Part shown: piece by piece, positions 6,675 to 45,039 of the stretch
How the letters are laid out: each line of letters starts with the position of its first letter
Numbering within the stretch: position 1 is the stretch's first letter
Source of the DNA: a virus
Lineage: Duplodnaviria > Caudoviricetes
Virus record (IMG/VR): IMGVR_UViG_3300028920_000023
Strand: one strand, 5' to 3'
Length of the DNA: 64,000 bases
Translations under genes and position numbers: made by a program
Notes under the pieces: generated by a model
Databases searched by the model: none
Told to the model about the DNA's origin: nothing
The model's input: the letters and a program-made list of their open reading frames with translations, nothing else

Positions 6675-7808
6675 ATGCTAACAATTATACACAGCTGCCC
6701 ACCAGAAAAACACGCACACTGTGCTACAATAGAGTGTGTTAAAACAGACGACATAAGAACATCAGGAACCTACATAGCATACTACGTAGGAAGCGAATGC
6801 ACAGACAAACAAAAAGTAAGAATAGACTTCCACCGAAACGAAAAAAACAACCACGAACTAAGAGCAACAACAGACCTACCATATAGAACAGGCAACTGCC
6901 TCCTGCTATCCAACCAAAACAAAGTCTACATCATCTACTCAGTATTCGAAGACATAGACGAACAAGGAAACACACCAAAAACACCAGTACAACGATGGGC
7001 CTACTGCTCAAACTGGATAAGAGAGATAACACTAACAGACACAATCGAACTAACAAAACCCAAAAAACTCAACCTAGAGCCAGGACACCTCGTACGCTGC
7101 CAAGCCATACAACACATAAACATAACCAGGATGATAACATACGCAATACCACTCTACAGAGAACACGACTGCTACGGCCTCATAATGGGAATGGGAATGG
7201 GATCAGGACTAATCGAACTAGGTAAAATAGGAAAATCAAAAGACGAATCCAAAACAAGATTCGGAAAAGGAAAACTCATACAACCAACACTATGGAACGA
7301 CCAAAACGGAAGACTACACTCCCTATCCAGGAACATAACACCAAAACCATACGCATGGTACAGCTACTCAGACACAAACGGAACATACTGGACAGAACCA
7401 GAACAAGTCAACGTAGACAACGCCAACAACTCACTAGTAACAATAAACCAAAACACCAAAAACCCAATACTAATCTGGAACCTAGGACACGACAGACACC
7501 GACTGGTACTAGGGAGATACGATACAGATACAAAAACCGCCACACCATACCTACAACTAAATATCGACACAGACATGGCAGGAACAGGCTCCTACCCCAA
7601 CTACGCAATAGACCACCTAAATAGACTACACATCGTATTCACAACAAACAGACGTGCAATCACAAGAATAATAATCGAAGAAAACGACCTAAAAACAATA
7701 GAAGAAAAAGCAAAAACCCTAGGAAAAATACTAACCTACAACGACCTAGACATGCCAGAATCACACCAACACGCATCATACCAACACGCAATGCAGAGAC
7801 GGAAATGA
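6675..7808 (+). CDS. Sialidase/BNR (Asp-box) beta-propeller glycoside-hydrolase-like protein
   Basis: HAHCATI N-terminus, Asp-box YSDTNGTYW, QPTL, C-terminal SYPNY..LHIVFT. Confidence 0.7.
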   Translation: MLTIIHSCPPEKHAHCATIECVKTDDIRTSGTYIAYYVGSECTDKQKVRIDFHRNEKNNHELRATTDLPYRTGNCLLLSNQNKVYIIYSVFEDIDEQGNTPKTPVQRWAYCSNWIREITLTDTIELTKPKKLNLEPGHLVRCQAIQHINITRMITYAIPLYREHDCYGLIMGMGMGSGLIELGKIGKSKDESKTRFGKGKLIQPTLWNDQNGRLHSLSRNITPKPYAWYSYSDTNGTYWTEPEQVNVDNANNSLVTINQNTKNPILIWNLGHDRHRLVLGRYDTDTKTATPYLQLNIDTDMAGTGSYPNYAIDHLNRLHIVFTTNRRAITRIIIEENDLKTIEEKAKTLGKILTYNDLDMPESHQHASYQHAMQRRK

Positions 7809-8311
7809 CCAAAATCCTAGACGTATGCTGCGGACCACGGTCCATGTGGTACGACCCAACAAACCCGAACGTAATATACGGAGACTGCAGAAACGAAACA
7901 ATAATAGTCAAAGACCAATCACACGGCAAAATAGGCGGAACAAGAAGTATACAAATCGCACCAGACATACTATTAGACTTCAGAACATTACCATTCTACA
8001 ACAACACATTCGACCTCGTAGCCTTCGACCCGCCCCACGCCAGAACAGGACCAAAAAGCTGGTTAGGAGCAAAATACGGAAAACTATCACCAAACTGGAA
8101 AGAAGATATCAAACAAGGATTCAAAGAATGCCTCAGAGTATTAAAAACAACAGGAACACTAATATTCAAATGGAACGAAACACACGTAAGACTGAGTCAA
8201 ATTATGAAACTCACCCCACATAAACCACTATTCGGGCAGGTAGCAGGAAGACACGGAAAAACACACTGGATGGTATTTATGAAGACTTCCTCTCATACTC
8301 CTCATACATAA
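7805..8311 (+). CDS. SAM-dependent methyltransferase (phage type, DPPH motif)
   Basis: ILDVCCGPRSMW motif I; DLVAFDPPH; FKWNE. Confidence 0.85.
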   Translation: MTKILDVCCGPRSMWYDPTNPNVIYGDCRNETIIVKDQSHGKIGGTRSIQIAPDILLDFRTLPFYNNTFDLVAFDPPHARTGPKSWLGAKYGKLSPNWKEDIKQGFKECLRVLKTTGTLIFKWNETHVRLSQIMKLTPHKPLFGQVAGRHGKTHWMVFMKTSSHTPHT

Positions 8312-8489
8312 CATACATCGTCTTCAACTCTTCCCGAGTCTCCATAATAATCTTCGCATTACTCTCATCATGTTTACCATATTCACCACCTACAGCATCA
8401 AGAAAACCTTCCCTATCACGAATAGCACAAAGCACAACATAAGACCTAAACTCATCCATATTCCTAAAATGCTTCGGAGCACGTGCCAT
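8277..8489 (-). CDS. Hypothetical protein
   Basis: Short ORF starting MARAPKHF, fills a gap. Confidence 0.5.
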   Translation of the reverse strand: MARAPKHFRNMDEFRSYVVLCAIRDREGFLDAVGGEYGKHDESNAKIIMETREELKTMYVMYEEYERKSS

Positions 8490-8540
8490 ACCAAATAATA
8501 CCACGAAACAATACAAATTAAAATTGTACATATAACAGTC

Positions 8541-9155
8541 ATGATTGGCTATATAATGTGCCTAGAATGCTCCGTAAAATACAGAGGAAGAGCCACCGGC
8601 GACCTCCCGCACGGAACATACCTAGTAATAATCAAACCAGACGGATCCATAAGCATACACAGCGCCAACTCACCACAACCAGTCAACCACCAATCCGGAG
8701 GATCTAAGTTTCAATACGGAGACAACCAAATTATAGCAACCAGAAAAAACGAAACAATTACAGTAAACATAACAAAAACCATCTGGGCACAACAAATCGA
8801 AAACTGGTCAACAAACAAACCAAAAATGAAGAAAACAGAAAACCACCTACGCGACAAAATAATAAGAAACATAGAAGAACTGCTAGAAGAACCAATCAAA
8901 AGCATAGAAAAAGAATTCAAAACACCATACGGCCCAGTAGACCTAGCAGCACTCGCAAGATCCGGAACACTGCACATTATAGAAATAAAACGCGGAAAAG
9001 CCAACATCAACGCCGCAACACAACTAAAGAAATACATAGAAGCACTAAATCAAGACAACATACAAGGATGGCTCATGAGTCCCGAGATATCGGAGGGAGC
9101 CCTTCGGCATCTTCACGATCACGACCTATCGTGGGTACCCGTGGAGCACGACTAG
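8541..9155 (+). CDS. nucS: Endonuclease NucS/EndoMS (mismatch-specific)
   Basis: CSVKYRGR, KPDGSISIH, PVN, ENHL, EFKTPYGPVDL, IEIKRG, QLKKY (intact PD-(D/E)XK and QxxxY residues). Confidence 0.88.
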   Translation: MIGYIMCLECSVKYRGRATGDLPHGTYLVIIKPDGSISIHSANSPQPVNHQSGGSKFQYGDNQIIATRKNETITVNITKTIWAQQIENWSTNKPKMKKTENHLRDKIIRNIEELLEEPIKSIEKEFKTPYGPVDLAALARSGTLHIIEIKRGKANINAATQLKKYIEALNQDNIQGWLMSPEISEGALRHLHDHDLSWVPVEHD

Positions 9156-9597
9156 AATCGCACACCGTGCAGGTATAAAACGCAGTCGCTATAGAATGCT
9201 TCGTATAAGCTTCACACAAATAACAATACTTGGAAACCAAAACACGATCCTCAGCAACAACTTCCTTTTTCTTCCGTTTCTTATTCTCCCTCACTATTAT
9301 AGCCCTAGATCTGCTCCCCCTAACGAAATCCTGCAACCAAGAATACCACAAACTAACCAACTCACTACGCCGCCTAGCGGAAGAATCACCAAACTCCATA
9401 CCATAAACCCTAGTAGGAATAACCTTAGAAACCAAAGCCCTACCATTGTCAAAAAATGGATACCATCTATCCACAAAATACGCAGGATACACCAAATCCT
9501 TATCAACAACAACTTTCAACTTTGTAGCTTTATCAGGTAAACGTTTAGGCTTATCGAATTTCTTATTAGTAAGAGACCTTCTAAGAGTAAAATTCAC
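9073..9597 (-). CDS. Hypothetical protein with C-terminal CxxC..CxxC
   Basis: 174-aa ORF; overlaps the nucS 3' end. Confidence 0.55.
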   Translation of the reverse strand: MNFTLRRSLTNKKFDKPKRLPDKATKLKVVVDKDLVYPAYFVDRWYPFFDNGRALVSKVIPTRVYGMEFGDSSARRRSELVSLWYSWLQDFVRGSRSRAIIVRENKKRKKKEVVAEDRVLVSKYCYLCEAYTKHSIATAFYTCTVCDSSRAPRVPTIGRDREDAEGLPPISRDS

Positions 9598-9926
9598 CGC
9601 CTCATTCTCGACTTAGCAAAAGCATCCCTAATCTGCTTATGAGGAGACTTATATTTCTTATCTTTATCAATCTTAAGATTCAAAGCAACCTGGAGAACCG
9701 GCTCAATCCTATCCTTAATCTCCTCCAAAGTCTTAGCATCACCAACAGAACCCTGCAACCAATATAACTTAGTATCGCCCTTAGAGGGCATTATAACTAA
9801 ATCCTCAATAGGTAAAACAGACTTATTAACCTTCAACCAATCCGCCATCTGCATAGATAAAGCCCTGGACATATACTCCGGAACACCAGCCATATCTATC
9901 GTCAATATCAAAGTCCTTCTATCCAT
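9594..9926 (-). CDS. Hypothetical protein
   Basis: 110-aa ORF with GAGGA RBS. Confidence 0.75.
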   Translation of the reverse strand: MDRRTLILTIDMAGVPEYMSRALSMQMADWLKVNKSVLPIEDLVIMPSKGDTKLYWLQGSVGDAKTLEEIKDRIEPVLQVALNLKIDKDKKYKSPHKQIRDAFAKSRMRR

Positions 9927-10040
9927 AACATCCTCATATCATCTTAATTAAAAAACCAACCACAAATATCGCCAAGAATATATACATCGCATATCGCAGA
10001 ATCTTATCAAAATGAGTTTTGTGCACATTATCATATTGCA

Positions 10041-10535
10041 TTATGGCCCTCTCCTAGGTCTGATTTTCTCAAGTTCCTCATTCAACCTATTAACAAACTT
10101 AGCTAACTTCTCATTATCAGAATGCAACTCAGACATCAATTGCGCAATATTATCTATGCGCCTATCCAACTGCCCTCCCCACCAGACCTTGACACCAGGT
10201 TGGTCCTGAATATTAACATCATGCCACTTATATAATTCTGTAACTTTTGAAGAGACATTATTAATAATAAGCTTTTGTTCTTCTTGAGCTCTAGCAATAC
10301 TTTCAAGACGACGATATACTTCCGCTTGGGGAAGCTCAATAATCTGGCTTTGAGACGGAGACTTCTCATCAGCAGACCCTTTCCTACGCTCCTGAAATAC
10401 CTTCAGAAAACCAAAAACCTCCTTAAGAATAAGTATAGCCAGAACACCGCCAGCGCCAAGAGCTGTTAACTTACTATCCCAATCAGCCTCGGCGACAACA
10501 AGATTATTGTAAGCCCAAAATATATTTTCGTACAT
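10041..10535 (-). CDS. Membrane-anchored coiled-coil protein (possibly holin-like)
   Basis: One hydrophobic helix LTALGAGGVLAILIL followed by coiled coil. Confidence 0.65.
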   Translation of the reverse strand: MYENIFWAYNNLVVAEADWDSKLTALGAGGVLAILILKEVFGFLKVFQERRKGSADEKSPSQSQIIELPQAEVYRRLESIARAQEEQKLIINNVSSKVTELYKWHDVNIQDQPGVKVWWGGQLDRRIDNIAQLMSELHSDNEKLAKFVNRLNEELEKIRPRRGP

Positions 10536-10607
10536 GAGGTTGCTCCAGTCAATCCCGGTTTGCACATCGGGCTTCCATAATATGTTTGGAGTAGAGTAAA
10601 TAAAAAC

Positions 10608-10973
10608 ATGAATGACAACCCACTAAAATCAATAAACAAACACTTCAAACCCCTAAGCTCGAAAATAACAGAACATCTCATATTCAACATAAGAAGAATC
10701 CGATGGGGCCAAAAAGAAGAAAACAAACAAAAATGCAAACAGAAATATCTAGAATTAATATACGCAACCACCTACCACCAATGGATAATCCAACACAACC
10801 AACTAATGTCCCAAGCTCAAATCGAATATCTAGGATGCTTCGGAGAAACGTGGATAATCCGATCCCTATTCGTACTAAAAGACTTCATAAACCGAGAATT
10901 TGAAGAACAATGGGAAAAAGCCGGAGAAAGACCCAAATGGCTCAACGCTTGCAAAACAAAATCCCAAAATTAA
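10608..10973 (+). CDS. Hypothetical protein
   Basis: 121-aa ORF. Confidence 0.6.
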   Translation: MNDNPLKSINKHFKPLSSKITEHLIFNIRRIRWGQKEENKQKCKQKYLELIYATTYHQWIIQHNQLMSQAQIEYLGCFGETWIIRSLFVLKDFINREFEEQWEKAGERPKWLNACKTKSQN

Positions 10974-11235
10974 ACATCACAGTAGTCCTATCATTCTTAC
11001 CCCGCTTGATAAGCATAAAAGCCGTCAAACCATTCCGAATACCAAAAGGACTATTTTGAGCAACCAAATCTTCAACCAAACCACTATAAATCTGTTTACA
11101 CAAACCCCTAGTCATATCCAACTTACAACCCTCAAACTCATGAGAAATATTCTTAGATGAAAAATACTCATAAGCATGCTCAGAAGCATGCTCAATCATA
11201 GGATCAAGATGAGTCAACAACTCAGTAATATTCAT
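10942..11235 (-). CDS. Hypothetical protein
   Basis: GGGAG RBS then ATG at 11235. Confidence 0.65.
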   Translation of the reverse strand: MNITELLTHLDPMIEHASEHAYEYFSSKNISHEFEGCKLDMTRGLCKQIYSGLVEDLVAQNSPFGIRNGLTAFMLIKRGKNDRTTVMFNFGILFCKR

Positions 11236-11287
11236 ACAAACTCCCAAAGGTATTTTTAAAGTATATAACAACAAAAAGGAGAACAAA

Positions 11288-11482
11288 ATGAACTACCGAG
11301 AAATCGTAAACCAAATAAGAGAAGCCAAAAACCACAAAATAACACCAAGCACACAACAAGGAAAAGTCAACATCGAAATACAAACACAAGACGGGAACTG
11401 GAAAAAGATCCTATCAGACGTATCACAAGGAATAGCAGAAGACACCGTCAGACAAGCACAAAACCGACTACTCCTAGGCTAA
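11288..11482 (+). CDS. Hypothetical protein
   Basis: AAGGAG RBS, 64 aa. Confidence 0.75.
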   Translation: MNYREIVNQIREAKNHKITPSTQQGKVNIEIQTQDGNWKKILSDVSQGIAEDTVRQAQNRLLLG

Positions 11483-11498
11483 AAGGATTAAAGACGTT

Positions 11499-12209
11499 CT
11501 ACCCCCCACACAACTTATTCAAATCCAGAAGATAATCACCTTCATCAACAGAAAATACCGATTGACAATCCTCACAATAATAAGAAGGACGCTCATAAGG
11601 ACCACCAGAACAGAAATTCAAATTCTCATGAGGACACTCCAACTGAATCCGGGACAATTCCCTCTCAAGATCCATTATCTCAGACTTCAAATCATCAATC
11701 TCAAGATGAATATTACGAACCCTAACAGAAACACGCTCCAACCTAGGCTCCATAACATTCTCAACACAACTCATCAAAGTACCTAAAGAACCATCATTCT
11801 TAATAACAGCCACAGAAGGAGCAGACGAAACATCATCCATAGTCAGAGGGTCAGTACTCCCAGGCTCCGTACGACCATGAACATAAATAACCAACTGAAA
11901 CCAAGACTTAACAGCATCAAACTCATTCTTAGGACGAACCCCAGAAACAACCCAACCACGCCTCAAACACTCCCTAACAAAATACCCAGGATCATCCTTC
12001 TGTTTTCCCTTACCGAACTCAAACAACCGCTCCCGAAAATCCTCTTTTCTCTCACAGACCTCCTCGGGAGTAATACCCAGACTATCGGCAAACTCCTTGA
12101 TAATGATCGCAGAACAATCGGTAGCCGTGGTACCGAGCATCTCAGCAACCTTATTAGCTACCGTAGTCTTGCCGCCCTTGCTAGGACCTACAACTAGGAC
12201 CCTGAACAT
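11499..12209 (-). CDS. P-loop kinase (deoxynucleoside monophosphate kinase-like) with C-terminal Zn ribbon
   Basis: VLVVGPSKGGKTT Walker A; KEDFRERL; VSGVR..NEF; IKNDGSL; CPHE..CEDC. Confidence 0.75.
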   Translation of the reverse strand: MFRVLVVGPSKGGKTTVANKVAEMLGTTATDCSAIIIKEFADSLGITPEEVCERKEDFRERLFEFGKGKQKDDPGYFVRECLRRGWVVSGVRPKNEFDAVKSWFQLVIYVHGRTEPGSTDPLTMDDVSSAPSVAVIKNDGSLGTLMSCVENVMEPRLERVSVRVRNIHLEIDDLKSEIMDLERELSRIQLECPHENLNFCSGGPYERPSYYCEDCQSVFSVDEGDYLLDLNKLCGG

Positions 12210-12210
12210 C

Positions 12211-12588
12211 TTATGGCTCCTTTCTGACTTCAGGTAATGAAGGAAGATACCCCAAAGCACTATTAATATTACGTTCTAAACCCATTCTACGTTTCTCTTG
12301 ATTATCAATAAATTTCTTCATCTCAGCTCTATTAGAAGCAAAGAAAAAACCTTTACTATTGCTAATAATAGGAACACCACAATCATTAAACAAGATTTTA
12401 ACAGCCTTCCTAATCAAATTATCCTGAGCAGAATCAATAAGACCAAGAGCATTAGAAATCTGCTTAGCAGTCTTAGAATTCTCACTACCATACGCGAACC
12501 TATGCACAAATATCGTAATAGATTCTAATAACTCTATAGGTACCTCAGAAGTATTCTTCTTGGGAACAGCAGAATGAATATTGGTCAT
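12211..12588 (-). CDS. Winged-HTH-like protein
   Basis: TAKQISNAL..IRKAVKIL..GVPIISNSKGFFFA pattern; ATG at 12588. Confidence 0.6.
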   Translation of the reverse strand: MTNIHSAVPKKNTSEVPIELLESITIFVHRFAYGSENSKTAKQISNALGLIDSAQDNLIRKAVKILFNDCGVPIISNSKGFFFASNRAEMKKFIDNQEKRRMGLERNINSALGYLPSLPEVRKEP

Positions 12589-12593
12589 TTGAA

Positions 12594-12682
12594 TGGTACC
12601 CGGAGCGGGACTTGAACCCGCACGATAGTTACCTATCAACGGATTTTAAGTCCGTTGCGTCTGCCAATTCCGCCATCCGGGC
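12594..12682 (-). tRNA. tRNA-Leu (UAA), CCA encoded
   Basis: GCCCGGA/TCCGGGT acceptor stem, anticodon arm ACGGA-CTTAAAA-TCCGT, long variable arm, GGTTCAAGTCC T-loop, ACCA 3' end. Confidence 0.96.
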
Positions 12683-12775
12683 TCCAAGACATAATATCAC
12701 GCCAAAATCACCACAAAAATGATCAGTGAATCTACAGCGAGAATTAAACATTGAACTGGTTTCTTTCTTAGGAGC

Positions 12776-38237: not shown

Positions 38238-38756
38238 ATGATGTATGAGGTTACGATGTTTGAGAGCAGTATTGAGGCTGCGGTGACTCGTCGGGATAAG
38301 GATTTGGAAACGGCGATTCTTGCGGCTCATAATGAGTTGATGAGGCGGCACCAGGGTGATGATTCGTGTAGGCTGAATCGTTATTGTGGGGCTTGGTCGA
38401 AGCCATCTAATCCCGAGGAGCGGCATAATCTTAGTGGGTCTGAGCCGGATTTTAGTGAGGGGGTTGTGTTGATTTGGTGTTTTGACCGGATGACGGTTGT
38501 GGAGGGTGTTGCCAGGAAGATTTTGGACAGGTCGGTTGTGTTTGTGGTGATTTCTGATCAGGAAGGTGATTTGGATGCTAGGGAGTTTGGTGGTTTGGGG
38601 GAGGCTTTGGTTTATTTTAATGAGATGCGTGAGGTGTTTGGTCTTACTGTTGGTGATTGCGGGCATGATCCTGGTTTGGTGACTGAGGAGTGGTTGGCTT
38701 CGTATAATTTGATGGCTGATGATGGGGAGGCGCGTGTTTGCTTGAGGTCTAGGTGA
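38238..38756 (+). CDS. Hypothetical protein
   Basis: GGAGG RBS. Confidence 0.75.
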   Translation: MMYEVTMFESSIEAAVTRRDKDLETAILAAHNELMRRHQGDDSCRLNRYCGAWSKPSNPEERHNLSGSEPDFSEGVVLIWCFDRMTVVEGVARKILDRSVVFVVISDQEGDLDAREFGGLGEALVYFNEMREVFGLTVGDCGHDPGLVTEEWLASYNLMADDGEARVCLRSR

Positions 38757-38760
38757 GGGG

Positions 38761-38813
38761 TTGTGCTGATGAGGCTTTGGCCGAAACAGAGGAGGGTTTT
38801 TCTCTGTTTGTGT
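38761..38813 (+). ncRNA. Hammerhead-like motif (family B; stem I all G.U wobble)
   Basis: UGUG-CUGAUGA...CUCUG-UU-UGUG. Confidence 0.6.
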
Positions 38814-38985
38814 TGTTTGTGTTGTTTGTGTTGTTTTTGTTTTGTGGAAGGAGGTTTTCATGTCTACAGGTTGTTAGGAAGGGGAGTGGTGATGTTCTTG
38901 GTGATTGTTATGAGGCTTTGGCCGAAACAGAGGAGGGTGTTTCTCTGTTTGGTTTGTACGTGGTTCTCGATTCGGAGGTGGGATT

Positions 38986-39186
38986 ATGACGAGCTTTGAT
39001 GGAAGGACGTGGATTCAGCAGACTGGGGCTGTGCTTCGGTTGGGGCGGGATGGCAATATGCGTCCTGCTGGTAAAAACCAGGCCAGGCGGGCTATTCGCC
39101 GCTTGGGTGGTCAGGAGCGTGCTGAGATGTGTAGGTTGTGCTTGGCGCGGGCGCTGCGGTTTGCTTTTCCTGGGAGGAAATGTTGA
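38986..39186 (+). CDS. Small basic protein
   Basis: GGAGG RBS. Confidence 0.55.
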   Translation: MTSFDGRTWIQQTGAVLRLGRDGNMRPAGKNQARRAIRRLGGQERAEMCRLCLARALRFAFPGRKC

Positions 39187-39259
39187 GGCTTTGGCCGAAA
39201 TAGAGGGATGTTTTTCTCTCTGTTTGTGTTTCTGAGTTGTTTGTGGAAAGGAGGTGGGT

Positions 39260-39605
39260 ATGGCTGGGCGGGTTCTGGAGGATGGTTTCGAGATTGGTGA
39301 TCTTAAGGATGAGTTTGGGGCGGAGGCGCTGGAGTGATCTTAAGGATGAGTTTGGGGCGGAGGCGCTGGAGAAGTTGGAGTTGATGGATCCTGCTAGCCT
39401 CAAGACGTCGAAGATTCAGAAGCAGAAGGTTGAGGGTGTTGGGCGTGTTGAGTGCTGGGTGGATGCGTGCTCGGTGGATGCGGATATGGGCCATGTTCGT
39501 TTCTGGCGTCTTCTCGATGTTGTCGATGGGGAGGGGGTTCCGGTTGTTCTTGAGGAGGATTATGGTGAGGGTTTGCTTTTTTATGGGCGGAATTACACTC
39601 TCTGA
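39260..39605 (+). pseudogene. Gene broken by an exact 37-nt tandem duplication
   Basis: 39298-39334 duplicated at 39335-39371; creates a stop and a frameshift. Confidence 0.75.
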
Positions 39606-39641
39606 TGAGTTTCGAATCCTTTTCCTTCGTGGAGGGGGATG
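39601..39641 (+). ncRNA. Hammerhead-like motif (family A)
   Basis: CUGAUGA-G(UUU)C-GAA-UCCUUUUCC/GGAGGGGGA. Confidence 0.5.
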
Positions 39642-39665
39642 TTAACCTTAACAAAGGAGGTGGTG

Positions 39666-40028
39666 ATGGCGAAGGGTGAAGAGAACAAGAAGGACAGTCT
39701 CTTGCGTGCTTACGATGAGTTTTGTGAATTGCTTGATAAAATTCAGGATGGCGAGGGGAGGATTCTCGAGGACGAAGAGAAGAATGCTCTTCTTGGATTG
39801 TTGATGAACAGTGGAGACAAGGAGTTGGCGTGTGTTGGTTTGTTGATTGGTTCTTTGGATAAGGTGAGGTTGTCTTCTTCTGGGGGTGTTTGGTCGATAG
39901 GTCTCGGCGTTCTGGGCGATTTTGATGTTGTTTTGTCGTTCAGAGAGTCCGAGCATGATGAGCTGGGTCGTGGCGATGAGAAGAGTGGCGATCCAAAGGA
40001 TAAAACAGTTCTTAGGAAAAACAATTGA
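39666..40028 (+). CDS. Hypothetical protein (may continue in the +1 frame to 40200)
   Basis: AAAGGAGG RBS. Confidence 0.65.
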   Translation: MAKGEENKKDSLLRAYDEFCELLDKIQDGEGRILEDEEKNALLGLLMNSGDKELACVGLLIGSLDKVRLSSSGGVWSIGLGVLGDFDVVLSFRESEHDELGRGDEKSGDPKDKTVLRKNN

Positions 40029-40294
40029 GGGCAGATATGAGCAAGGGCTCCTTCACATCTGTTGCAATGGCGAACAGATGTCAAGTGTTACTGTGTCCGA
40101 TTCCGAAGGATCCAGAAAAATCTTCGAGGGTATTCTCGGAGCTATTGACAAGATAAAAGTTTCCGATATAGACTTTACCAATAACCAACCAAAATCCTAG
40201 GGGGTGTCATGGAGCATTTTTTCGTTTGCGAGGGGCCGTGTATTTGTCATCAGACGATCGAAACCCTCCGCCACGAAAGGTGCTGGTGAGGAAT

Positions 40295-40335
40295 CCTGAT
40301 GAGTTTCGAATCCTTCTCCTGACTGGAGGGGGAAG
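40295..40335 (+). ncRNA. Hammerhead-like motif (family A)
   Basis: CUGAUGA-G(UUU)C-GAA-UCCUUCUCC/GGAGGGGGA. Confidence 0.5.
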
Positions 40336-40386
40336 TGTTTTCCTTGTTGGAAATTGGTTGGTTTGTTAACCTCGGGAGGATTTGGT

Positions 40387-40674
40387 ATGACCAGGATCTA
40401 CAGAGTGACGGAGGAGGAGAAGGAGATTTTGGTGGCTTTGCGCCGGAAGGGTGAGAAGTGTAGCCAGATGATCGCTCGTCTCACCGCAGCGATTGCCGAA
40501 CTTGATTCGGTTCCTCCTAAACCTATTCGGGCCGTTAGTCATCGGTTCGATTTTGAGCGATCTGAACTTGAGACTATCAAAGCAAAGGCCGAGGAGCTTG
40601 AGACCACCGTGATCCATTTGCTCATTTACACGGCACGACAATTGGTGGAAAAGGAAAAGGCCGGCAAGCTCTGA
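40387..40674 (+). CDS. Small DNA-binding protein (tandem ribbon-helix-helix-like)
   Basis: RIYRVTEEEKEIL.. and RFDFERSELETIKAKAEEL.. Confidence 0.6.
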   Translation: MTRIYRVTEEEKEILVALRRKGEKCSQMIARLTAAIAELDSVPPKPIRAVSHRFDFERSELETIKAKAEELETTVIHLLIYTARQLVEKEKAGKL

Positions 40675-40690
40675 TATTTGTTCACGTTCC

Positions 40691-40731
40691 TCTGATGAGT
40701 TTCGAATCCTTTTCCTTCGTGGAGGGGGAAG
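40691..40731 (+). ncRNA. Hammerhead-like motif (family A; duplicate of 39601)
   Basis: Near-identical to 39601, including the downstream RBS. Confidence 0.5.
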
Positions 40732-40752
40732 TTACCCTAACAAAGGAGGACA

Positions 40753-40992
40753 TTGATGATGCGATGGAAGATGCTGCCCCGAAATAAAAGGAAGTCGATC
40801 AGGAAGAAGTTTAGCGAGAAGGTTAATGCGCTGATCCACTATCTGGAGTCGTACGTCGGGGACAACTACGCAGGGAATTCCTCTGTGAGTCAGTTGAATA
40901 ATGTCTGGGGCAAGTTCAACGACTGTTGTCCTTTGGACTTCGATGGTATTGGTGATGAGAGTAGGAATCAAGATGGCGGGAAGTTACCCTAA
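40753..40992 (+). CDS. Hypothetical protein
   Basis: AAAGGAGG RBS. Confidence 0.65.
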   Translation: MMMRWKMLPRNKRKSIRKKFSEKVNALIHYLESYVGDNYAGNSSVSQLNNVWGKFNDCCPLDFDGIGDESRNQDGGKLP

Positions 40993-41031
40993 CAAAGACG
41001 ATGAGGACGATGAGGACGATGAGGACTGAAT

Positions 41032-41071
41032 CCTGACGAGTTCGAATCCTTCTCCTAAATGGAGGAGGAAG
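41032..41071 (+). ncRNA. Hammerhead-like motif (family A; duplicate of 40295)
   Basis: CUGACGA-G(UU)C-GAA-UCCUUCUCC/GGAGGAGGA. Confidence 0.5.
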
Positions 41072-41157
41072 TGTTTTCCTTGTTGGAAATTGGCTGGTTT
41101 TGTTAACCCTCGGGAAGATTACCGAGAAATGAAGAACCCGTTTTGAAAGGAGAGGCG

Positions 41158-41448
41158 ATGAACACCAAGAGCGTCGAGTTTGGGATTTTGATCCAGGGCT
41201 GCACTTACAGGGACCTTCGTGCCGTCCTGCCGCTGAGCAAGGACGGAGATCCTTGTTTGGCATGTGAAGATCATGTGGTTGAGTCTGCAAATGAAGATGG
41301 TCCTGAGCACTATGTTAGTTTCGGTGTCTTGCAGCATGGCGCTGAGGTTCCTGTTGTTGGTCCTAATGTTGAGTATTGGACCAATGCGATTAAGTCTGGT
41401 GTGAAGGGGGCTAGGGCCAAGTTTGCTATTCTTGAGGTTTGGCGGTGA
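41158..41448 (+). CDS. Hypothetical protein
   Basis: AAAGGAG RBS. Confidence 0.75.
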   Translation: MNTKSVEFGILIQGCTYRDLRAVLPLSKDGDPCLACEDHVVESANEDGPEHYVSFGVLQHGAEVPVVGPNVEYWTNAIKSGVKGARAKFAILEVWR

Positions 41449-41664
41449 TTTAGGGGTTTTTATTTGTGTTTTTCTGTTTGGTGTGGGTGGTTGGTGTTTG
41501 TTTTTATATGCTTTGTGTGGGGGGTTTGTATTTGTTCTTATATTCTTGATTGAGGGAGTTGTTTGACAAGGGGTTTCTTTAGGCTGACAAGTATTTGTGT
41601 GGGGGCAGGGGGATACGACTGCACTGGGTGTTTTTTGACTGGAAACCTTGCTGAGGAGGTTGTG

Positions 41665-41886
41665 ATGTTTGTGATTACTGGTCGAGATGGTTCTGGCAAG
41701 ACTTGGTATTGGCGGAAGTGGACTGGGGCCTGCAGCAGTGGCCATCCGAAATGGGTGGAGCGGTTCTCTCCTAAGTGCATCTACGCACAACGGAAGGTCG
41801 CCGAGAAGACTGCGGCAGGGAGTGCGGTCATTAACGCATTTCGCAAGGGAGATCCGGTCCCTTTATCCGATGTTAGAGTGCTTTGA
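41665..41886 (+). CDS. Hypothetical protein
   Basis: GAGGAGG RBS. Confidence 0.6.
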   Translation: MFVITGRDGSGKTWYWRKWTGACSSGHPKWVERFSPKCIYAQRKVAEKTAAGSAVINAFRKGDPVPLSDVRVL

Positions 41887-42056
41887 TCCTGTTATGACAG
41901 CAAATCCGAAAAAGAGGCAGAAGGTGCAGAAGATAGCCAGCAGAGACCTCATTTTGGGCAAGCGTCTGCTGGACCTCTAGAGAGGAGGATGTGGCTGAGT
42001 ACTGTGGTTTGATGCGGAGGCGGAAACGGTCGAACGAGAGGATACGGAGGAGCATT

Positions 42057-42386
42057 ATGCTTATTTGGGATAGCGAAAGTGAGAATGATCAACCTACACC
42101 GATCGAGGAAGATCGGTTTTACCGGTCTCTGGGTGAGGATAATGGCGTCTTAATTGTGGACAGTTGTGAGACGTCTGATTCACGAACGACGGTTTTGTTG
42201 TTTGTGGGTCCGAATTCCAAGGAGAATTGGACTAAGTGGAATGAGTTTGCCCGCCTCATCCGCCTCATTGCAGATGAGGAAGTCGTTACCGAATGGCCGG
42301 ATGAGGAGTTGGATCTGGACGATATAAGCAAGTGCCTCAAGAAGTGTTTTGACCCACCAACCCAACCATCTTGTGCGTGCACATGA
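42057..42386 (+). CDS. Hypothetical acidic protein
   Basis: GGAGGAG RBS. Confidence 0.7.
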   Translation: MLIWDSESENDQPTPIEEDRFYRSLGEDNGVLIVDSCETSDSRTTVLLFVGPNSKENWTKWNEFARLIRLIADEEVVTEWPDEELDLDDISKCLKKCFDPPTQPSCACT

Positions 42387-42439
42387 AACACGTTGCATTT
42401 GTCAAGCATTAAACTAATCCCAGGAAAGGAATTCGCGCC

Positions 42440-42610
42440 ATGAAAAAAGATATCAGGATTGGAATGCAGGTTAGTTGGTCCATTTGTCACGGAAAAAGGA
42501 TTTTGAAAGGCACCGTAGTCGGCGTGAACCTAGGACGTAAATGGGATATGCTTACCGTGAAATTGCCTAACGGTGTTCTTATCACGGTTCCGGACTACGA
42601 ATGCAGATAG
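42440..42610 (+). CDS. 56-aa SH3/KOW-like protein (not in the ORF track)
   Basis: AAAGGA RBS; MKKDIRIGMQVSW..KGTVVGVN..LTVKL. Confidence 0.6.
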   Translation: MKKDIRIGMQVSWSICHGKRILKGTVVGVNLGRKWDMLTVKLPNGVLITVPDYECR

Positions 42611-42647
42611 TTTCGCGCAACTAAATTCGGCAAAGGAAATAACCACC

Positions 42648-42791
42648 ATGGTTTCGATGACTGTCGTGCTGTTCTGCAATGGGACAGAGAAGAAAATTGG
42701 TCATCAGCTCGATGCGAAATCTCTACCTATCTTGAACAACTTGAGAAAGAACGCAAAGAACTGGCCTGAGGAAGCTCGGGTTATCTGGTGA
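42648..42791 (+). CDS. Hypothetical 47-aa protein
   Basis: AAAGGA RBS; stop lies inside the next motif. Confidence 0.5.
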   Translation: MVSMTVVLFCNGTEKKIGHQLDAKSLPILNNLRKNAKNWPEEARVIW

Positions 42792-42830
42792 GGCTGGCCG
42801 AAACAGAGAGATGTTCTTCTCTGTTTGTGT
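42784..42830 (+). ncRNA. Hammerhead-like motif (family B, A6G)
   Basis: CUGGUGA-GG(CUGG)CC-GAAA-CAGAGA..UCUCUG-UU. Confidence 0.45.
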
Positions 42831-42856
42831 TGTCTGTTTTTCTTTAAGGAGGGTTA

Positions 42857-43174
42857 GTGATGAGTGAGAAGAGTGGTGACTATAAAGCAAGTTTTCTTGT
42901 GGTTGAACGAGATGATGCCATCTTGATTCCGGAAGATTCGGTTCCCGGATTTACTTCAGTCCTGTTGGAATTTGGGGACGGGGTCACACTCGGACAAATC
43001 GAAGAAAGCGATGTAGTTCTTTTGGAGAACCAAAACACACTCAGATTCGAACGATGCACTCCCGGTGACTGGGACAGCAAATACACGCAGTGGGAAAGAG
43101 CCGGATGGGATCCGATAGGGTTCGAGTCAGTAAGGCTGTACTCGACTTACGAGGAATATCAAAAGATTTGTTGA
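42857..43174 (+). CDS. Hypothetical protein
   Basis: AAGGAGG RBS. Confidence 0.75.
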   Translation: MMSEKSGDYKASFLVVERDDAILIPEDSVPGFTSVLLEFGDGVTLGQIEESDVVLLENQNTLRFERCTPGDWDSKYTQWERAGWDPIGFESVRLYSTYEEYQKIC

Positions 43175-43241
43175 CGGGTCGTGGAGGGCATTGCCAGGAA
43201 GGATTACTGTTTTCCAATGATTCTTGCGAAAGGAGCTGTTC

Positions 43242-43727
43242 ATGTCTACAGATTATGAGTCTTCTGCAGTTCACGGTTTTTGGCTAGATGTTGAAGACCT
43301 TGGGTCTCTAAAGAAGATCCGGGAAGAGAAGAGCCATATGGAGCCCCGCTACGACCCAAAGACCGGCGAGAAGAGGGAAGTAAAGGTCATCGACGTACAC
43401 GGGGGAGATTTCTATTTTCTAGACGGCATCTGGTGCGAGACGCCCTATGACCTGGCAGAAGCGATCCGAAGTAAGCTGCGCCAGTATCGCACCAGACCAA
43501 CAACGGCCCCGCACGCCCCAGCCGATGACCCCGATGTCCACATCCACCAGGAAAAGGACGGCAGCATAACAGCTCTCGTCATTGGCTACGAGATCAGCCA
43601 CAAGCCACTACAAGAGATACAACTCACAGATGCAAAATTGAAGTCTTGTTTGCCTCGTGTTCAGGAGTTGCTATCTGGTGTCGATTTGGGGTTGACAGGA
43701 GTACATCCGACGTTGCTTGTTGGGTGA
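43242..43727 (+). CDS. Hypothetical protein
   Basis: AAAGGAG RBS. Confidence 0.75.
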   Translation: MSTDYESSAVHGFWLDVEDLGSLKKIREEKSHMEPRYDPKTGEKREVKVIDVHGGDFYFLDGIWCETPYDLAEAIRSKLRQYRTRPTTAPHAPADDPDVHIHQEKDGSITALVIGYEISHKPLQEIQLTDAKLKSCLPRVQELLSGVDLGLTGVHPTLLVG

Positions 43728-43854
43728 GTCTTTTGGTCCGTCAAGGAGGACAGCATGAGCGACTTAAAGATCTTTAACGGTCTAGCCTGTCCTGACCCCA
43801 ATGTGGACCTTGCTGGTGCCGTGAAACGTTCGCTAAATGGTGAAAGCTAGTTCT

Positions 43855-43905
43855 ATTCTGAAGAGGCTCCTGCCGAAACCGAGAATTACACTTCTCTGTT
43901 ATTCC
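43855..43905 (+). ncRNA. Hammerhead-like motif (family B)
   Basis: CUGAAGA-GGC(UCCU)GCC-GAAA-CCGAGAA..UUCUCUG-UU. Confidence 0.5.
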
Positions 43906-43974
43906 TGCATTACCTGATTCCATGCCAGACACAACACTGGCTAGACGGAACTTCCATACCACAAAGGAGAAAAC

Positions 43975-45039
43975 ATGAACAACACACAACTACTAGAGAA
44001 GCTCAATAAAACCGGCAAACTAACCCAAAAACAAATGGAAAAACTAGCCAGACACATGACAAGGGCATCCAGGGAAAGGCAGCTAGAAGCCATAAGGCAA
44101 TGTGGATACGCTCTCTGCTTTATCGAAAACCCAACAGAAGAAATAGAACTAGAAGCCGTAAAACAAAACGGCTACGCTATCGACTATATCAAGAACCCAA
44201 CAGAAGAAGTACAACTAGAAGCCGTAAAACAAAACGGCGGAGCTGTCAAGTTTATTGACAACCCATCCGAGACTGTCCAGTTAGAGGCAGTAAAGCAAAA
44301 CGGAGAAGCCATCAGACGTATCGAAAGCCCATCCAAGGAAGTGCAGCTAGAAGCCGTAAAACAAAACGGATTCGCTATCCAGTATATCGATAACCCATCC
44401 AGAGAAGTCCAGCTAGAAGCCGTAAAACAAAATGGCTACGCTCTCCAACATATCACTATCCCATCTAGGGAAGTACAGCTAGCGGCAATAAAACAAGCCG
44501 GAGGTGCTATCCGATACCTTGAGAACCCAACAGAAGAAATACAACTAGAAGCAGTAAAGAAAGCTGGCACAACCATCAGACATATCAAAAACCCAACAGA
44601 AGAAATACAACTAGAAGCAGTAAAACAAAACGGCGGAGCTGTCAGGTTCATCAAGAACCCAACACAAGAAATACAACTAACAGCAGTAAAACAAACTGGA
44701 ATGGCCATCGAGCATATCGAAAACCCAACAGAAGAAATAAAACTAGCAGCCGTAAAACAAGACGGAAATGTTATCCGGTATATCGAAAACCCAACCAAAG
44801 AAGTACAGCTAGAAGCCGTAAAACAAAACTGCGCAGCAATCCGGCATATTAGGAGCCCCACAGGAGATCTGGAAGTATTATCCCTAATGCTCAGGCTTAA
44901 TGGCGATTACGACATGGCACACAGAACAGCCAAAACCCTATACGAAGACATGAGCAAAGACGACCGAGAAAAACTCAAGGACAGCCTAACCAGATCCAGA
45001 AGCGCATTGGCTGGCGGTGGCCGCACACTGGACATCTGA
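43975..45039 (+). CDS. DUF4116-like 22-aa repeat protein, paralog 1
   Basis: Repeated QLEAVKQNGYAI.YI.NPTEE. Confidence 0.88.
   Translation: MNNTQLLEKLNKTGKLTQKQMEKLARHMTRASRERQLEAIRQCGYALCFIENPTEEIELEAVKQNGYAIDYIKNPTEEVQLEAVKQNGGAVKFIDNPSETVQLEAVKQNGEAIRRIESPSKEVQLEAVKQNGFAIQYIDNPSREVQLEAVKQNGYALQHITIPSREVQLAAIKQAGGAIRYLENPTEEIQLEAVKKAGTTIRHIKNPTEEIQLEAVKQNGGAVRFIKNPTQEIQLTAVKQTGMAIEHIENPTEEIKLAAVKQDGNVIRYIENPTKEVQLEAVKQNCAAIRHIRSPTGDLEVLSLMLRLNGDYDMAHRTAKTLYEDMSKDDREKLKDSLTRSRSALAGGGRTLDI

Follow-up and report, generated by a model that had tools for sequence, protein, structure and literature searches.

The 64,000-nt stretch of DNA analysed here (the window), part of a giant sediment phage genome of roughly 355 kb, carries an extreme A+C versus G+T skew, which our data support as belonging to the DNA strand rather than to the genes encoded on it. 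The skew is carried by synonymous sites, is specific to this lineage, and its boundaries could be mapped (Table 1). As its cause we favour, tentatively and with a probability of about 0.4, a very strong mutation pressure, specific to the lineage and unequal between the strands, with a polarity that is determined locally and probably depends on the direction in which the DNA is synthesised.

Table 1. Compositional domains and selected features of the window.
Feature	Position	Strand	Remarks
Strong A+C domain of the plus strand (= G+T-rich minus strand)	3781..28800		genes on both strands
NucS/EndoMS mismatch endonuclease	8541..9155	+	Pfam NucS_N, E 7e-14; NucS_C, E 1e-18
Island without skew	12061..14370	-	A+C 0.55
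tRNA-Leu(TAA)	12594-12682		inside the unskewed island
LAGLIDADG/Mom-like homing-endonuclease gene	12776-14296	-	inside the unskewed island
PurZ-like adenylosuccinate-synthetase homologue	14411..15637	+	Pfam Adenylsucc_synt, E 6e-14
Most extreme gene	22511..23689	-	G/T-ending codons 392/393
Tandem 62/84-nt A+C-rich repeats (families D7, D8)	28500..28870	+	right edge of the strong A+C domain
First part of small-gene array, weak to moderate A+C skew	28801..33407	+	GC about 0.5-0.55
151-nt spacer holding the sign flip	33257..33407	+	one ribozyme-like motif copy with RBS
Strong G+T domain of the plus strand	33408..39990		all genes +; segmentation A+C 0.31
Coding-strand reference gene of the G+T domain	37537..38145	+	homologue P0126
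Stepwise return from G+T to neutral	39991..43860	+	cumulative minimum 43,305
Moderate A+C skew of ordinary strength	43861..64000	+	DUF4116 repeat genes, subtilase, AAA, DUF2201

The first-pass annotation had drawn attention to the skew by hand counts in three 60-nt segments, all of which are exact: 52/60 A+C at 28321-28380, 44/60 A+C at 20101-20160 and 54/60 G+T at 37321-37380. With the window mean of 0.587 A+C as the expectation, binomial tests give P values of 2.5e-6, 0.013 and 4e-15, respectively. In a 1-kb profile, A+C content ranges from 0.83 (28-29 kb) to 0.25 (37-38 kb). The cumulative skew, which the annotation had suggested as a check, places the sign switches at 33,416 (maximum of cumulative (A+C)-(G+T)) and 43,305 (minimum). 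The former agrees with the flip annotated at 33.1-33.4 kb between genes that stay on the plus strand. The latter agrees with the annotated return near 43.3 kb, although this return proceeds stepwise over 40-43.9 kb and is not a single switch.

Within the A+C domain, the plus strand is 65-93% A+C (0.65-0.88 by segmentation), and the extreme codon phase reaches 0.8-1.0 throughout. Read on the plus strand, third positions are 83-99.7% A/C for genes of both directions: Pfam-supported plus genes (BNR_2, NucS, PurZ, helicase) have 83-92% A/C at this position, and minus genes (the Pfam-supported HD and DCD genes, plus others) 88-99.7% G/T, so that the skew is indeed independent of gene direction, as had been proposed. 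The 2-fold and 4-fold sites are both affected, and the plus-strand composition of 4-fold sites (A.62-.72, C.22-.25, G.04-.07, T.02-.06) is alike whether taken from plus or minus genes. Codon positions 1 and 2 show A+C near 0.45-0.65; weakly constrained ORFs and stretches without convincing genes have 0.88-0.93 A+C across all three phases. Being carried by synonymous sites, the skew is an imprint of evolution, left by mutations of the C>T and A>G type on one of the strands. At the sites left unconverted, the flanking-base preference does not exceed about 2-fold, which fits a general polymerase or chemical process rather than a motif-specific enzyme.

Two genes illustrate the effect. The PurZ gene has 375 A/C-ending codons out of 409, with Met or Trp accounting for 17 of the other 34; its orthologues, at 28-56% identity, have a third-position A+C of 0.46-0.53. 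The most extreme gene of the window is real, as it shares 42% identity over 206 aa with a syntenic relative devoid of skew (L001) and has a sialyltransferase-like PHROG match (E 7e-8). Protein composition follows the skew, as annotated: in the A+C domain, K+N+T+P+H+Q and G+V+F+L+W+C residues make up 0.39 and 0.20, respectively, of the plus-gene products, as against 0.20 and 0.37 for minus genes; for the G+T domain, the fractions are 0.15 and 0.41.

Within the A+C domain lies an island without skew, whose homing-endonuclease gene has 62% G/T at third positions versus 88-99.7% in its neighbours. The island reads as a recent mobile insertion that rewriting has not yet reached. A mobile element almost free of skew is what one would expect if mutation is still rewriting, slowly, the DNA already in place.

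At the right edge of the A+C domain, two shorter assemblies stop within the tandem repeats (at 28,617 and 28,681), and an 81-kb contig passes through these repeats with 0 mismatches. In the following array, genes at 29.2-30.6 kb have a third-position A+C of 0.59-0.63, and those at 31.4-32.4 kb one of 0.85-0.92. The sign then flips at 33,408 between adjacent plus genes, from a third-position A+C of 0.72 (gene 32939-33256) to 0.14, with the steepest step at 33,417. This boundary lies a few bases from a start codon, right after the intergenic motif and RBS common to the array cassettes. The spacer preceding it contains two exact 21-bp direct repeats (33270-33290 and 33324-33344), for which shuffled sequences gave 0 chance matches. 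An inverted copy with 3 mismatches is found at 31242-31262, and exact inverted copies of the 19-nt core are located at 31246 and 31300.

Genes of the G+T domain have a third-position A+C of 0.03-0.25, and their 4-fold sites consist of T.47, G.41, C.08 and A.04. The reading direction was established with gene 37537-38145 (third-position A+C 0.03, 197/203 G/T-ending codons), which is 46% identical over its full length (E 1.6e-35) to a homologue whose contig shows no strong skew, and which has 12 more matches with E below 1e-3. A 488-aa minus-strand ORF overlapping this gene is of low complexity and lacks a Pfam match. Third-position phase in the block agrees with the plus frames, and the oriented intergenic RNA motif remains on the plus strand throughout. 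Its stem changes from TCCCTTTCC/GGAAAGGGA to TCCTTTTCC/GGAGGGGGA here, with G.U pairs kept; this drift is seen only in the G+T block and thus points to A>G and C>T on the plus strand there, the directional decay that the annotation had described.

Along the return, genes at 40.4-42.4 kb have a third-position A+C of 0.26-0.36 and those at 42.4-43.7 kb one of 0.47-0.51, and A+C richness is regained by 43.9 kb. Beyond, third-position A+C amounts to 0.6-0.8, with C/T ratios of 0.71/0.29 and A/G ratios of 0.66/0.34 at 2-fold sites. The patchy flips of about 100 nt that had been noted were confirmed in part; they are mostly constrained intergenic motifs and small islands. Examples are a neutral stretch at 35.8-36.2 kb and one that is strongly G+T at 41.4-41.56 kb.

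Sign changes are not confined to the window. At least five were found in 81 kb, at 2.3, 33.4, 43.3, about 69.8 and 71.9 kb. One flip falls within an intact 652-codon gene just outside the window, whose third positions form A/C plateaus of 0.85, 0.54 and 0.15; hence, a single origin is not the whole story. The G+T patch at 70.1-71.9 kb has a sharp right edge and fades leftward, whereas the block at 33.4-43.9 kb has its sharp edge on the left.

None of the trivial causes named in the annotation holds. An assembly artefact is ruled out by the third-position bias in proteins with homologues and by four other assemblies from several samples (JGI, two ENA, Logan), which cover 26.9-43.7 kb with 0 mismatches. 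A simple inversion is ruled out because genes and the oriented intergenic motif stay on plus, and a skew tracking transcription because both gene directions share one strand bias and plus genes occur in both states. No skew was detected in about 20 PurZ loci of relatives (L001-L005, L010-L024), nor in a 320-kb relative (L009) and a ligase-syntenic one (L034); the nearest relatives, with 56-61% protein identity, are unskewed. The trait therefore belongs to this lineage, and a Z-genome by itself does not account for it. This weakens the earlier idea that, if A is really Z, its deamination to guanine could intensify A>G; the unskewed PurZ-bearing loci include one in a syntenic relative.

Among known systems, vertebrate mitochondrial DNA with its A+C-rich L and G+T-rich H strand shares the loss of G+T from one strand at synonymous sites, the independence from the coding strand and the adjusted protein composition. 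There, the asymmetry is explained by C>T and A>G on the opposite strand. In the phage, however, T is no less depleted than G (2-7% each at 4-fold sites), some genes reach 97-99.7%, the sign changes several times in 81 kb and also inside a gene, and no distance gradient exists over 25 kb of a far larger genome. Bacterial replication skew, with a keto-rich leading strand and a switch at origin and terminus, is likewise independent of gene orientation and changes sign sharply. The direction of change is also that of the bacterial transition-error asymmetry, the leading strand gaining A>G and C>T at about 3:1 in Streptomyces, C. glutamicum, M. smegmatis and E. coli (PMC11109965, PMC6159521). On the other hand, the two transition asymmetries multiply to 42-154 here versus about 6-7 computed from published counts (PMC6159521, PMC11109965), there are many switch points instead of two, the blocks are short (2-30 kb), and the return is stepwise.

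The phage further encodes a clear homologue of NucS/EndoMS (PDB matches 2VLD, E 2e-26, and 5GKE, E 1e-20), known from non-canonical mismatch repair in Actinobacteria and Archaea. Enzymes of this family cut G/T, G/G and T/T mismatches, not those of A and C, so that the two transition routes are handled unequally (PMC6159521). The phage NucS is a candidate modifier of the mutation spectrum. However, a skew this large has not been reported for any organism that bears NucS, and NucS alone would act strand-symmetrically, so that a second, asymmetric step is needed. APOBEC-type clusters around breaks resemble the phage pattern in their kilobase-scale blocks with one strand changed and a switch of the affected strand at a point. 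Yet these are single events of C>T in TC context, whereas the phage shows both C>T and A>G without context preference, at equilibrium, selection-filtered at codon positions 1-2 and inherited.

According to our preferred explanation, net G>A and T>C on one strand, equivalent to C>T and A>G on the other, would result from a pressure on the DNA itself that drives nearly all selectively free sites to two letters, while first and second codon positions would be held by selection. The polarity, which follows neither transcription nor gene order, is most likely set locally by which strand is copied discontinuously or left single-stranded, either in replication or at forks primed by recombination or repair; the keto-rich strand would have leading-strand polarity, similar to the known replication-error asymmetry. 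We infer this link to DNA synthesis, as well as any role of NucS, which may sharpen the bias by repairing G/T but not A/C mismatches. The position at 33.4 kb would be a fixed start from which forks go right, fading over 40-43.9 kb, with 3.8-33.4 kb copied leftward. Low-skew stretches (the endonuclease island, 28.8-31.4 kb and 42.4-43.7 kb) would have arrived more recently and so far escaped rewriting.

The sign at 33.4 kb agrees with the published direction of replication-error asymmetry, and to its right the skew declines with distance, in steps. With A+C to the left and G+T to the right, as the keto-rich-leading-strand rule predicts for an origin, 33.4 kb is a plausible replication origin. 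The origin-like switch of the first-pass annotation has in its favour this polarity and the two 21-bp repeats, the only origin hallmark detected at this site; no motif common to the switch points was found. The strand-displacement mode with deamination of single-stranded DNA that the annotation had envisaged is not supported, and no distance gradient of skew is present across the A+C domain (4.8-28.7 kb); a few origins as the cause are at odds with the number of sign changes and the flip inside a gene. Several of these observations also weigh against our own explanation: the asymmetry product is far above measured replication-error asymmetry, the opposite sharp edges at 70.1-71.9 and 33.4-43.9 kb defeat one simple polarity rule, the sign changes are too many for ordinary origins and termini, and the missing gradient counts against it as well, as do the lack of further origin hallmarks at 33.4 kb and of a motif common to the switch points.

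The leading alternative, although unlikely, is a recombination mosaic, in which resident DNA is A+C-rich through one genome-wide pressure and the opposite or neutral blocks are imports, with switches as joints. Imports would have arrived by homologous or cassette recombination from relatives or genome positions with reversed orientation, or from unskewed sources. The boundary at 33,408, placed after the shared motif and RBS near a start codon, is an obvious crossover site, and the endonuclease island shows imported DNA arriving unskewed. Skew plateaus (0.03-0.25, about 0.3, about 0.5 and 0.77, and those in the 652-codon gene) instead of smooth gradients are expected for segments differing in history or age. 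However, no donor or relative with opposite skew was found, the nearest relatives being unskewed, DNA of opposite skew differs at almost every third position, which should hamper homologous exchange, and a mosaic accounts for the patchwork, not for the underlying pressure.

Quite improbable is selection at the DNA or RNA level for strands unable to self-pair. Lacking Watson-Crick self-complementarity, an A+C-only or G+T-only strand would form no hairpins and contain no palindromic restriction sites, and its local sign would be arbitrary with domain walls anywhere. This would suit the nearly complete saturation (392/393 codons) and a sign that ignores gene direction and can flip within genes. 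Phage populations are big enough for weak selection at synonymous sites, but the effect per site would be tiny. Palindromic 4-mers and 6-mers occur in the skewed domains at about half their frequency in the unskewed island, a drop that follows automatically from composition with no excess beyond it demonstrated. Moreover, the phage tolerates the moderate skew of 44-64 kb and the neutral stretches, relatives from similar habitats lack the skew, and no precedent was found described in the literature searched.

Less probable again is a transcription-start or R-loop process, by which one strand is exposed and repaired or resynthesised differently downstream of promoters, the polarity following (partly antisense or read-through) transcription units rather than annotated genes. 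The patch at 70.1-71.9 kb does begin abruptly in an intergenic region upstream of two minus genes and fades downstream, and in several minus genes the bias at third positions is relaxed or reversed over the first 25-75 codons. However, plus genes of the window include both states, some with 0.83-0.92 A/C at third positions and others with 0.03-0.25, the codons of minus genes end in G/T across 25 kb, and antisense transcription would have to dominate over 6.5 kb to produce the G+T block, for which our scan gave no particular support. An A/C-rich coding strand near minus promoters is also opposite to what deamination of an exposed non-template strand predicts.

Very unlikely is a hypermutation of single strands while exposed, be it by a DNA deaminase of host or phage that acts on C and A or through chemical deamination or alkylation, recurring in many generations with selection as a filter. 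In its favour, the net outcome on one strand is precisely C>T plus A>G, and sign-switching, strand-coordinated blocks resemble clustered damage of single-stranded DNA around breaks. But the weak flanking-base preference argues against it, a deaminase-type zinc motif is absent from all ORFs of the window, and a burst would strike all codon positions, yet the genes are intact with conserved domains; to our knowledge, no natural enzyme deaminates both DNA bases so efficiently. Finally, an artefact by chimeric assembly or by strand-specific base conversion of modified DNA during library preparation or sequencing can practically be discounted: two short assemblies do stop close to a boundary, at 28.6-28.7 kb, and the DNA may carry modified bases, judging from PurZ and the Mom-like domain, but these contig ends sit in a tandem repeat, the JGI, ENA and Logan contigs match over 26.9-43.7 kb, and conversion would hit all codon positions equally, whereas positions 1-2 stay close to 0.5 and the encoded proteins have Pfam and PDB matches.

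In this phage, one strand has thus been almost stripped of G and T, and elsewhere of A and C, at freely variable sites, an imprint much stronger and patchier than any replication or transcription bias that we found described in the literature searched.

The first-pass annotation described an extreme A+C versus G+T skew, and its three hand-counted 60-mers proved exact on recount (52/60 and 44/60 A+C; 54/60 G+T). The observation is confirmed, and the skew is more extreme than stated there. In total, the window contains 21,509 A, 16,052 C, 13,351 G and 13,088 T. The window and the adjoining 17 kb on its right were divided by likelihood segmentation into the blocks listed in the table. Cumulative (A+C)-(G+T) peaks at 33,416 and has its next minimum at 43,305, close to where the sign changes had been read by eye. 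At 4-fold sites of the A+C domain (3781..28800), the plus strand has A.62-.72, C.22-.25, G.04-.07 and T.02-.06, whichever strand is coding. The bias is 85-95% at 2-fold pyrimidine sites and 89-90% at purine sites; the plus-strand ratios at 2-fold sites (A/G 9-19, C/T 5.7-8.1) correspond to about 6.5-12 fold per transition class. All three phases are skewed in weakly constrained ORFs and in stretches without convincing genes, for example 27,950-28,500 (A.50, C.41, G.03, T.06), and protein composition tracks the local skew, as had been claimed. Two collagen-like repeat genes are located at 1-2,435 (plus) and 19,234-19,932 (minus); the former has a GC content of 0.63 and mildly G/T-rich third positions, and a cumulative skew minimum at 2,309 corresponds to its end.

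Gene orientation turned out to be irrelevant: plus- and minus-strand genes of 3.8-28.8 kb have a common plus-strand bias at 83-99.7% of third positions. In the A+C domain, minus genes have 88-99.7% G/T-ending codons, and plus genes 83-92% A/C-ending codons; half of the exceptions in PurZ, the adenylosuccinate-synthetase homologue, are Met or Trp codons, where G at the third position is obligatory. Plus genes of the G+T block have only 3-25% A/C third positions, so that transcription does not account for the skew. In the most extreme gene (22511-23689, minus), 392 of 393 codons end in G or T; this is a real gene, matched in PHROG and, at 42% identity, by a homologue in a relative that is syntenic and unskewed. 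Codon positions 1 and 2 stay at 0.45-0.65 A+C in conserved genes, and the proteins are intact. As stop codons require both T and A, two-letter DNA gives rise to spurious ORFs as long as 605 aa that overlap real genes or lie opposite them, e.g. 22,457-24,274 (plus) and 36,646-38,112 (minus). Automatic gene calls of 27.6-29.8 kb appear unreliable. A nucleotide-metabolism cluster at 14,411-19,188 comprises the PurZ-like gene, an HD_4 phosphohydrolase, a dCTP-deaminase/dUTPase-like gene and an unassigned 236-aa gene whose homologue lies beside PurZ in a relative (L001).

Misassembly or chimeric joins do not explain the switches: four contigs of the same phage from other assemblies (L029, L030, L031 and L032) span them with 0 mismatches and only repeat-number indels. 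All or parts of 26,861-43,660 are matched with 0 mismatches by contigs from JGI 3300031111 (81 kb), ENA ERZ27252208, ERZ27252236 and Logan SRR8554434, and 14.9-28.7 kb is reproduced by a JGI 3300028883 contig, a second ERZ27252208 contig and a Logan contig. The longer two of these end in the 62/84-nt tandem repeats (28.5-28.87 kb), which explains the contig breaks there. A base-conversion artefact would hit all codon positions, whereas the bias is specific to the third. No SNPs were found between assemblies; the eleven contigs of this phage (L006-L008, L025-L032) equal the window apart from repeat-number indels, and the population looks clonal across samples. Outside tandem repeats, the samples differ over 17 kb only by a 12-nt TTTTTC-repeat indel and a 4-nt indel (36,281 and 37,219). 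Unit numbers of the two tandem arrays vary between assemblies, and a 136-kb ENA contig is 223 bp shorter somewhere within 27.3-37.5 kb.

Beginning at 29.6 kb, small genes on the plus strand form an array whose members are separated by a conserved ribozyme-like motif found on the plus strand only. The third-position A+C values per gene define the left edge of the G+T block (33408..39990) as a step inside a 151-nt spacer and its right edge as a staircase over 4 kb. The boundary at 33,408 sits exactly on a cassette junction. The spacer holds two exact 21-bp direct repeats (33270 and 33324, 54 nt apart), with a looser inverted copy at 31242; the 19-nt core has perfect inverted copies at 31246 and 31300. 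Neither an AT-rich element nor an initiator gene was identified at this switch, and no motif common to the switch points was found. A 300-nt direct duplication (81% identity) lies within a paralogous gene pair (66% aa identity) that flanks the strongly skewed 31.4-32.4 kb stretch.

The coding strand of the G+T block is plus, because the biased phase is the third position of plus frames and the genes carry ribosome-binding sites. Gene 37537-38145 argues in the same direction, being matched by a homologue over its full length (46% identity, E 1.6e-35), with a family of shorter relatives besides, and using G or T at residues in common with the homologue where the latter has A or C; the overlapping 488-aa minus ORF was rejected as a gene, being a low-complexity product of the composition. 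Pfam gave no matches for G+T-domain genes. A promoter/terminator scan of 32.5-45 kb gave no particular support for antisense promoters; its many plus-strand stem-plus-T-run sites are the intergenic motif itself. A simple recent inversion would have turned genes and motif, but both remain on plus.

The motif copies also provide an internal record of the direction of change. The stem TCCCTTTCC/GGAAAGGGA of the A+C part becomes TCCTTTTCC/GGAGGGGGA in the G+T block, i.e. C>T and A>G on the plus strand, the direction read in the first-pass annotation. These stem changes retain G.U pairs in the RNA, and the unconstrained loop and tail positions follow the local skew. That the G+T-block stems still pair via G.U wobble argues that the motifs act as RNA. 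Two families of such hammerhead-like stem-loops lie between nearly all small plus-strand genes of 29,600-59,300. Only tRNA exceeded the Rfam threshold; the intergenic motif gave a sub-threshold Hammerhead_3 match (38135-38182). A DUF4116-like repeat-protein family with near-identical 5' ends is encoded at 43,975-46,456 and 62,359-63,621, with several copies also in a 320-kb relative (L009).

Features of the window: composition blocks, third-position bias, Pfam-annotated genes, RNA motifs, repeats and indels
Feature	Position	Strand	Value or remark
Block	1-2,310		plus-strand A+C 0.41; collagen-like repeat gene
Block	3,781-12,060		plus-strand A+C 0.65
Block	12,061-14,370		plus-strand A+C 0.55
Block	14,371-20,010		plus-strand A+C 0.70
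Block	20,011-24,570		plus-strand A+C about 0.8
Block	24,571-27,900		plus-strand A+C 0.70
Block	27,901-28,800		plus-strand A+C 0.88
Block	28,801-33,420		plus-strand A+C 0.61
Block	33,421-39,990		plus-strand A+C 0.31
Block	39,991-43,860		plus-strand A+C 0.45
Block	43,861-66,390		plus-strand A+C 0.54-0.62
Third positions, per gene	29.2-30.6 kb	+	A+C 0.59-0.63
Third positions, per gene	31.4-32.4 kb	+	A+C 0.85-0.92
Third positions	32939-33256	+	A+C 0.72
Third positions	33408-33644	+	A+C 0.14
Third positions, per gene	to 39.6 kb	+	A+C mostly 0.03-0.21; neutral island 35.8-36.2 kb
Third positions	39666-40028	+	A+C 0.25
Third positions, per gene	40.4-42.4 kb	+	A+C 0.26-0.36
Third positions, per gene	42.4-43.7 kb	+	A+C 0.47-0.51
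Third positions	from 43,975	+	A+C 0.77
BNR_2	6675-7808	+	Pfam
NucS	8541-9155	+	Pfam
LAGLIDADG/Mom-like	12776-14296	-	Pfam
PurZ-like	14411-15637	+	Pfam
HD_4	17488-18027	-	Pfam
DCD-like	18024-18518	-	Pfam
DEAD/ResIII helicase	24895-27333	+	Pfam
Motif copies, e.g.	31356, 31849, 32877, 33346, 33671, 35888, 40692	+	
Second motif family, copies	34082, 35259, 36740, 37464, 38153, 38763	+	
Tandem array	28,500-28,870		62/84-nt units
Tandem array	28,887-29,172		66/77-nt units
Direct duplication	29,217-29,516 and 32,502-32,801		300 nt
Indel between assemblies			42-bp
Indel between assemblies			12-nt TTTTTC unit
Indel between assemblies			4 nt
Indel between assemblies	29.0-29.1 kb		66/77-nt units

The region 64-81 kb to the right of the window was also analysed (the genome is roughly 355 kb). 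Here, the skew changes sign inside an intact 652-codon minus-strand gene (69,093-71,051 in window coordinates): on its coding strand, third-position A/C is 0.8-1.0 over codons 25-300, about 0.54 over codons 300-475 and 0.12-0.20 over codons 475-650. The reversed patch, in which the plus strand is G+T-rich, extends over 70.1-71.9 kb, includes the upstream 159-codon gene and has an abrupt end between genes at 71.89-72.01 kb. Rightward of this end, plus-strand third positions are again 0.9 A/C, declining to 0.6-0.7 at 77-81 kb. In all, the 81 kb contain at least five sign changes (about 2.3, 33.4, 43.3, 69.8 and 71.9 kb). The first 9,642 nt of the contig L027, which runs past the right end of the window (71.4-81 kb, minus strand), encode co-directionally an AAA ATPase, DUF6744, a WGR-domain protein, an NAD-dependent DNA ligase and DUF1257. 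A relative has, at the corresponding position, an AAA ATPase gene with an intein that contains a LAGLIDADG domain.

It had been suggested that a Z genome, with a modified base in place of A, could intensify A>G change. Among about 20 PurZ loci (27-56% identity), not one contains a 300-nt window that approaches the skew of this phage. The best relatives by PurZ, DUF2201 and ligase (40-61% protein identity) are unskewed, and so are L001, with three neighbouring genes in common besides PurZ, the 320-kb relative found via its DUF2201 gene, and a ligase-syntenic relative (L034, 59% identity). A 60%-identical ligase is found on two ENA contigs. No close relatives were found by megablast against phages or by an exact-word scan of IMG/VR, and no helicase relatives above 27% identity. 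Judging from these sequence comparisons, the skew is a derived trait that a Z genome alone does not explain, and a part played by Z is not supported.

A tRNA-Leu and homing-endonuclease island (12.06-14.37 kb) has only 62% G/T at third positions, as expected of a recent mobile insertion that is yet to be rewritten. Its minus-strand gene 12,776-14,296, the one clearly unskewed gene of the A+C domain, encodes two LAGLIDADG domains and a Mom-like C-terminal domain and adjoins tRNA-Leu(TAA) at 12594-12682. When PurZ was polarised against three orthologues, third positions were saturated (T>C 40, T>A 15, G>A 9, G>C 3), and positions 1-2 gave a 32:22 excess towards A/C with transversions equal in number to transitions, a signal too faint to assign a mutation class. 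The search for paralogues in different domains yielded a single pair, which at 30% identity is uninformative.

The data support a strand-specific, transcription-independent mutational imprint, as had been proposed. They require a strong bias acting on DNA strands and filtered by selection, for which a mutational cause is the economical reading. On its keto-rich strand the change runs C>T and A>G, as is known from deamination of single-stranded DNA and also from replication errors. We used the product (G/A)x(T/C) on the keto-rich strand at 2-fold sites, which is independent of GC pressure and equals the product of the two transition asymmetries. It amounts to 42-154 in the strong domains and 4.7 at 44-56 kb, compared with about 6-7 from published counts, so that the strong domains lie 6-20 times beyond ordinary replication asymmetry. 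On the leading strand of mismatch-repair-deficient Streptomyces, A>G exceeds T>C by 1150:412 and C>T exceeds G>A by 715:274 (PMC11109965), with the same leading-strand trend in E. coli, M. smegmatis and C. glutamicum (PMC11109965, PMC6159521). Replication-associated asymmetry likewise ignores gene orientation, but its measured range is about 2-4 fold per class (about 2.6-3 fold in the published counts), and it should involve few switches, at origins and terminus only and none gene-internal, whereas one switch here lies within an intact gene. Mitochondrial-type asymmetry resembles the present case in the loss of G and T from one strand at 4-fold sites whichever strand codes; however, it forms a gradient with single-stranded time, while across 4.8-28.7 kb we see gene-by-gene differences and no gradient.

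Among alternatives, a recombination mosaic of segments with different histories would fit both the plateaus of skew and the position of the 33,408 boundary on a cassette junction, and it could exist side by side with a root cause linked to replication. The origin at 33.4 kb inferred in the first-pass annotation is possible: the switch has origin polarity and a suggestive repeat pair, and the right flank of the block fades with distance. A simple origin model is nevertheless disfavoured, because the switches are too numerous and one is gene-internal, the sharp and fading sides of the 70-72 kb patch are opposite to those of the 33.4-kb block, no gradient exists over 25 kb, and the skew levels are plateaus with the 33,408 boundary at a cassette junction. 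Strand-displacement-like replication, also suggested there, is unsupported: across 4.8-28.7 kb the skew does not change monotonically, fading is confined to the right flank of the G+T block, where it is stepwise, and no protein-primed or rolling-circle replication genes were seen among the window ORFs scanned. Motif-specific hypermutation by an APOBEC/AID-like deaminase was rejected, as the identity of the 5' or 3' neighbour alters the unconverted fraction by less than about 2-fold and positions 1-2 remain near 0.45-0.65; no deaminase zinc motif occurs in window ORFs, and PHROGs gave no matches for nine ORFans of the A+C domain. A palindrome-anchored sawtooth was likewise rejected, with no 4- or 6-mer palindrome marking a skew step (all |z| < 2).

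The phage encodes a clear homologue of NucS/EndoMS, a family that cleaves G/T, G/G and T/T mismatches, but not C/A (PMC6159521). With such an enzyme, transitions could come mainly from A/C mispairs left unrepaired, which would sharpen any leading/lagging difference; since NucS itself is strand-symmetric, its role is a conjecture. A more novel reading of the mutational imprint, given a probability of roughly 0.3, is a so far undescribed strand-specific DNA transaction anchored at fixed sites, for instance repeated resynthesis or exposure of one strand from fixed starts, with two-letter rewriting of all free sites in lineages with NucS-type (G/T only) repair. This would be common to the present giant phage, some actinophages and several sediment or thermophilic archaea. 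In the part of the literature searched, an orientation-independent, gene-internal keto/amino mosaic is undescribed in phages.

Besides distorting protein composition and yielding long spurious ORFs on both strands, a composition of this kind will lead gene callers astray, and with them host prediction from codon usage and k-mer-based binning. Strand skews are the standard readout of genome copying and damage, and the present skew goes far beyond those known, two letters making up as much as 99.7% of synonymous sites. As it ignores gene direction and flips sign between and inside co-directional genes, neither one origin plus terminus nor transcription explains it. The unskewed mobile element offers a built-in clock for the rate at which resident DNA is rewritten. 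If the phage NucS is involved, the mismatch preference of a repair enzyme would be linked to genome composition; and if the polarity marks starts of DNA synthesis, the sequence alone would map the start sites of replication or recombination in an uncultured giant phage.
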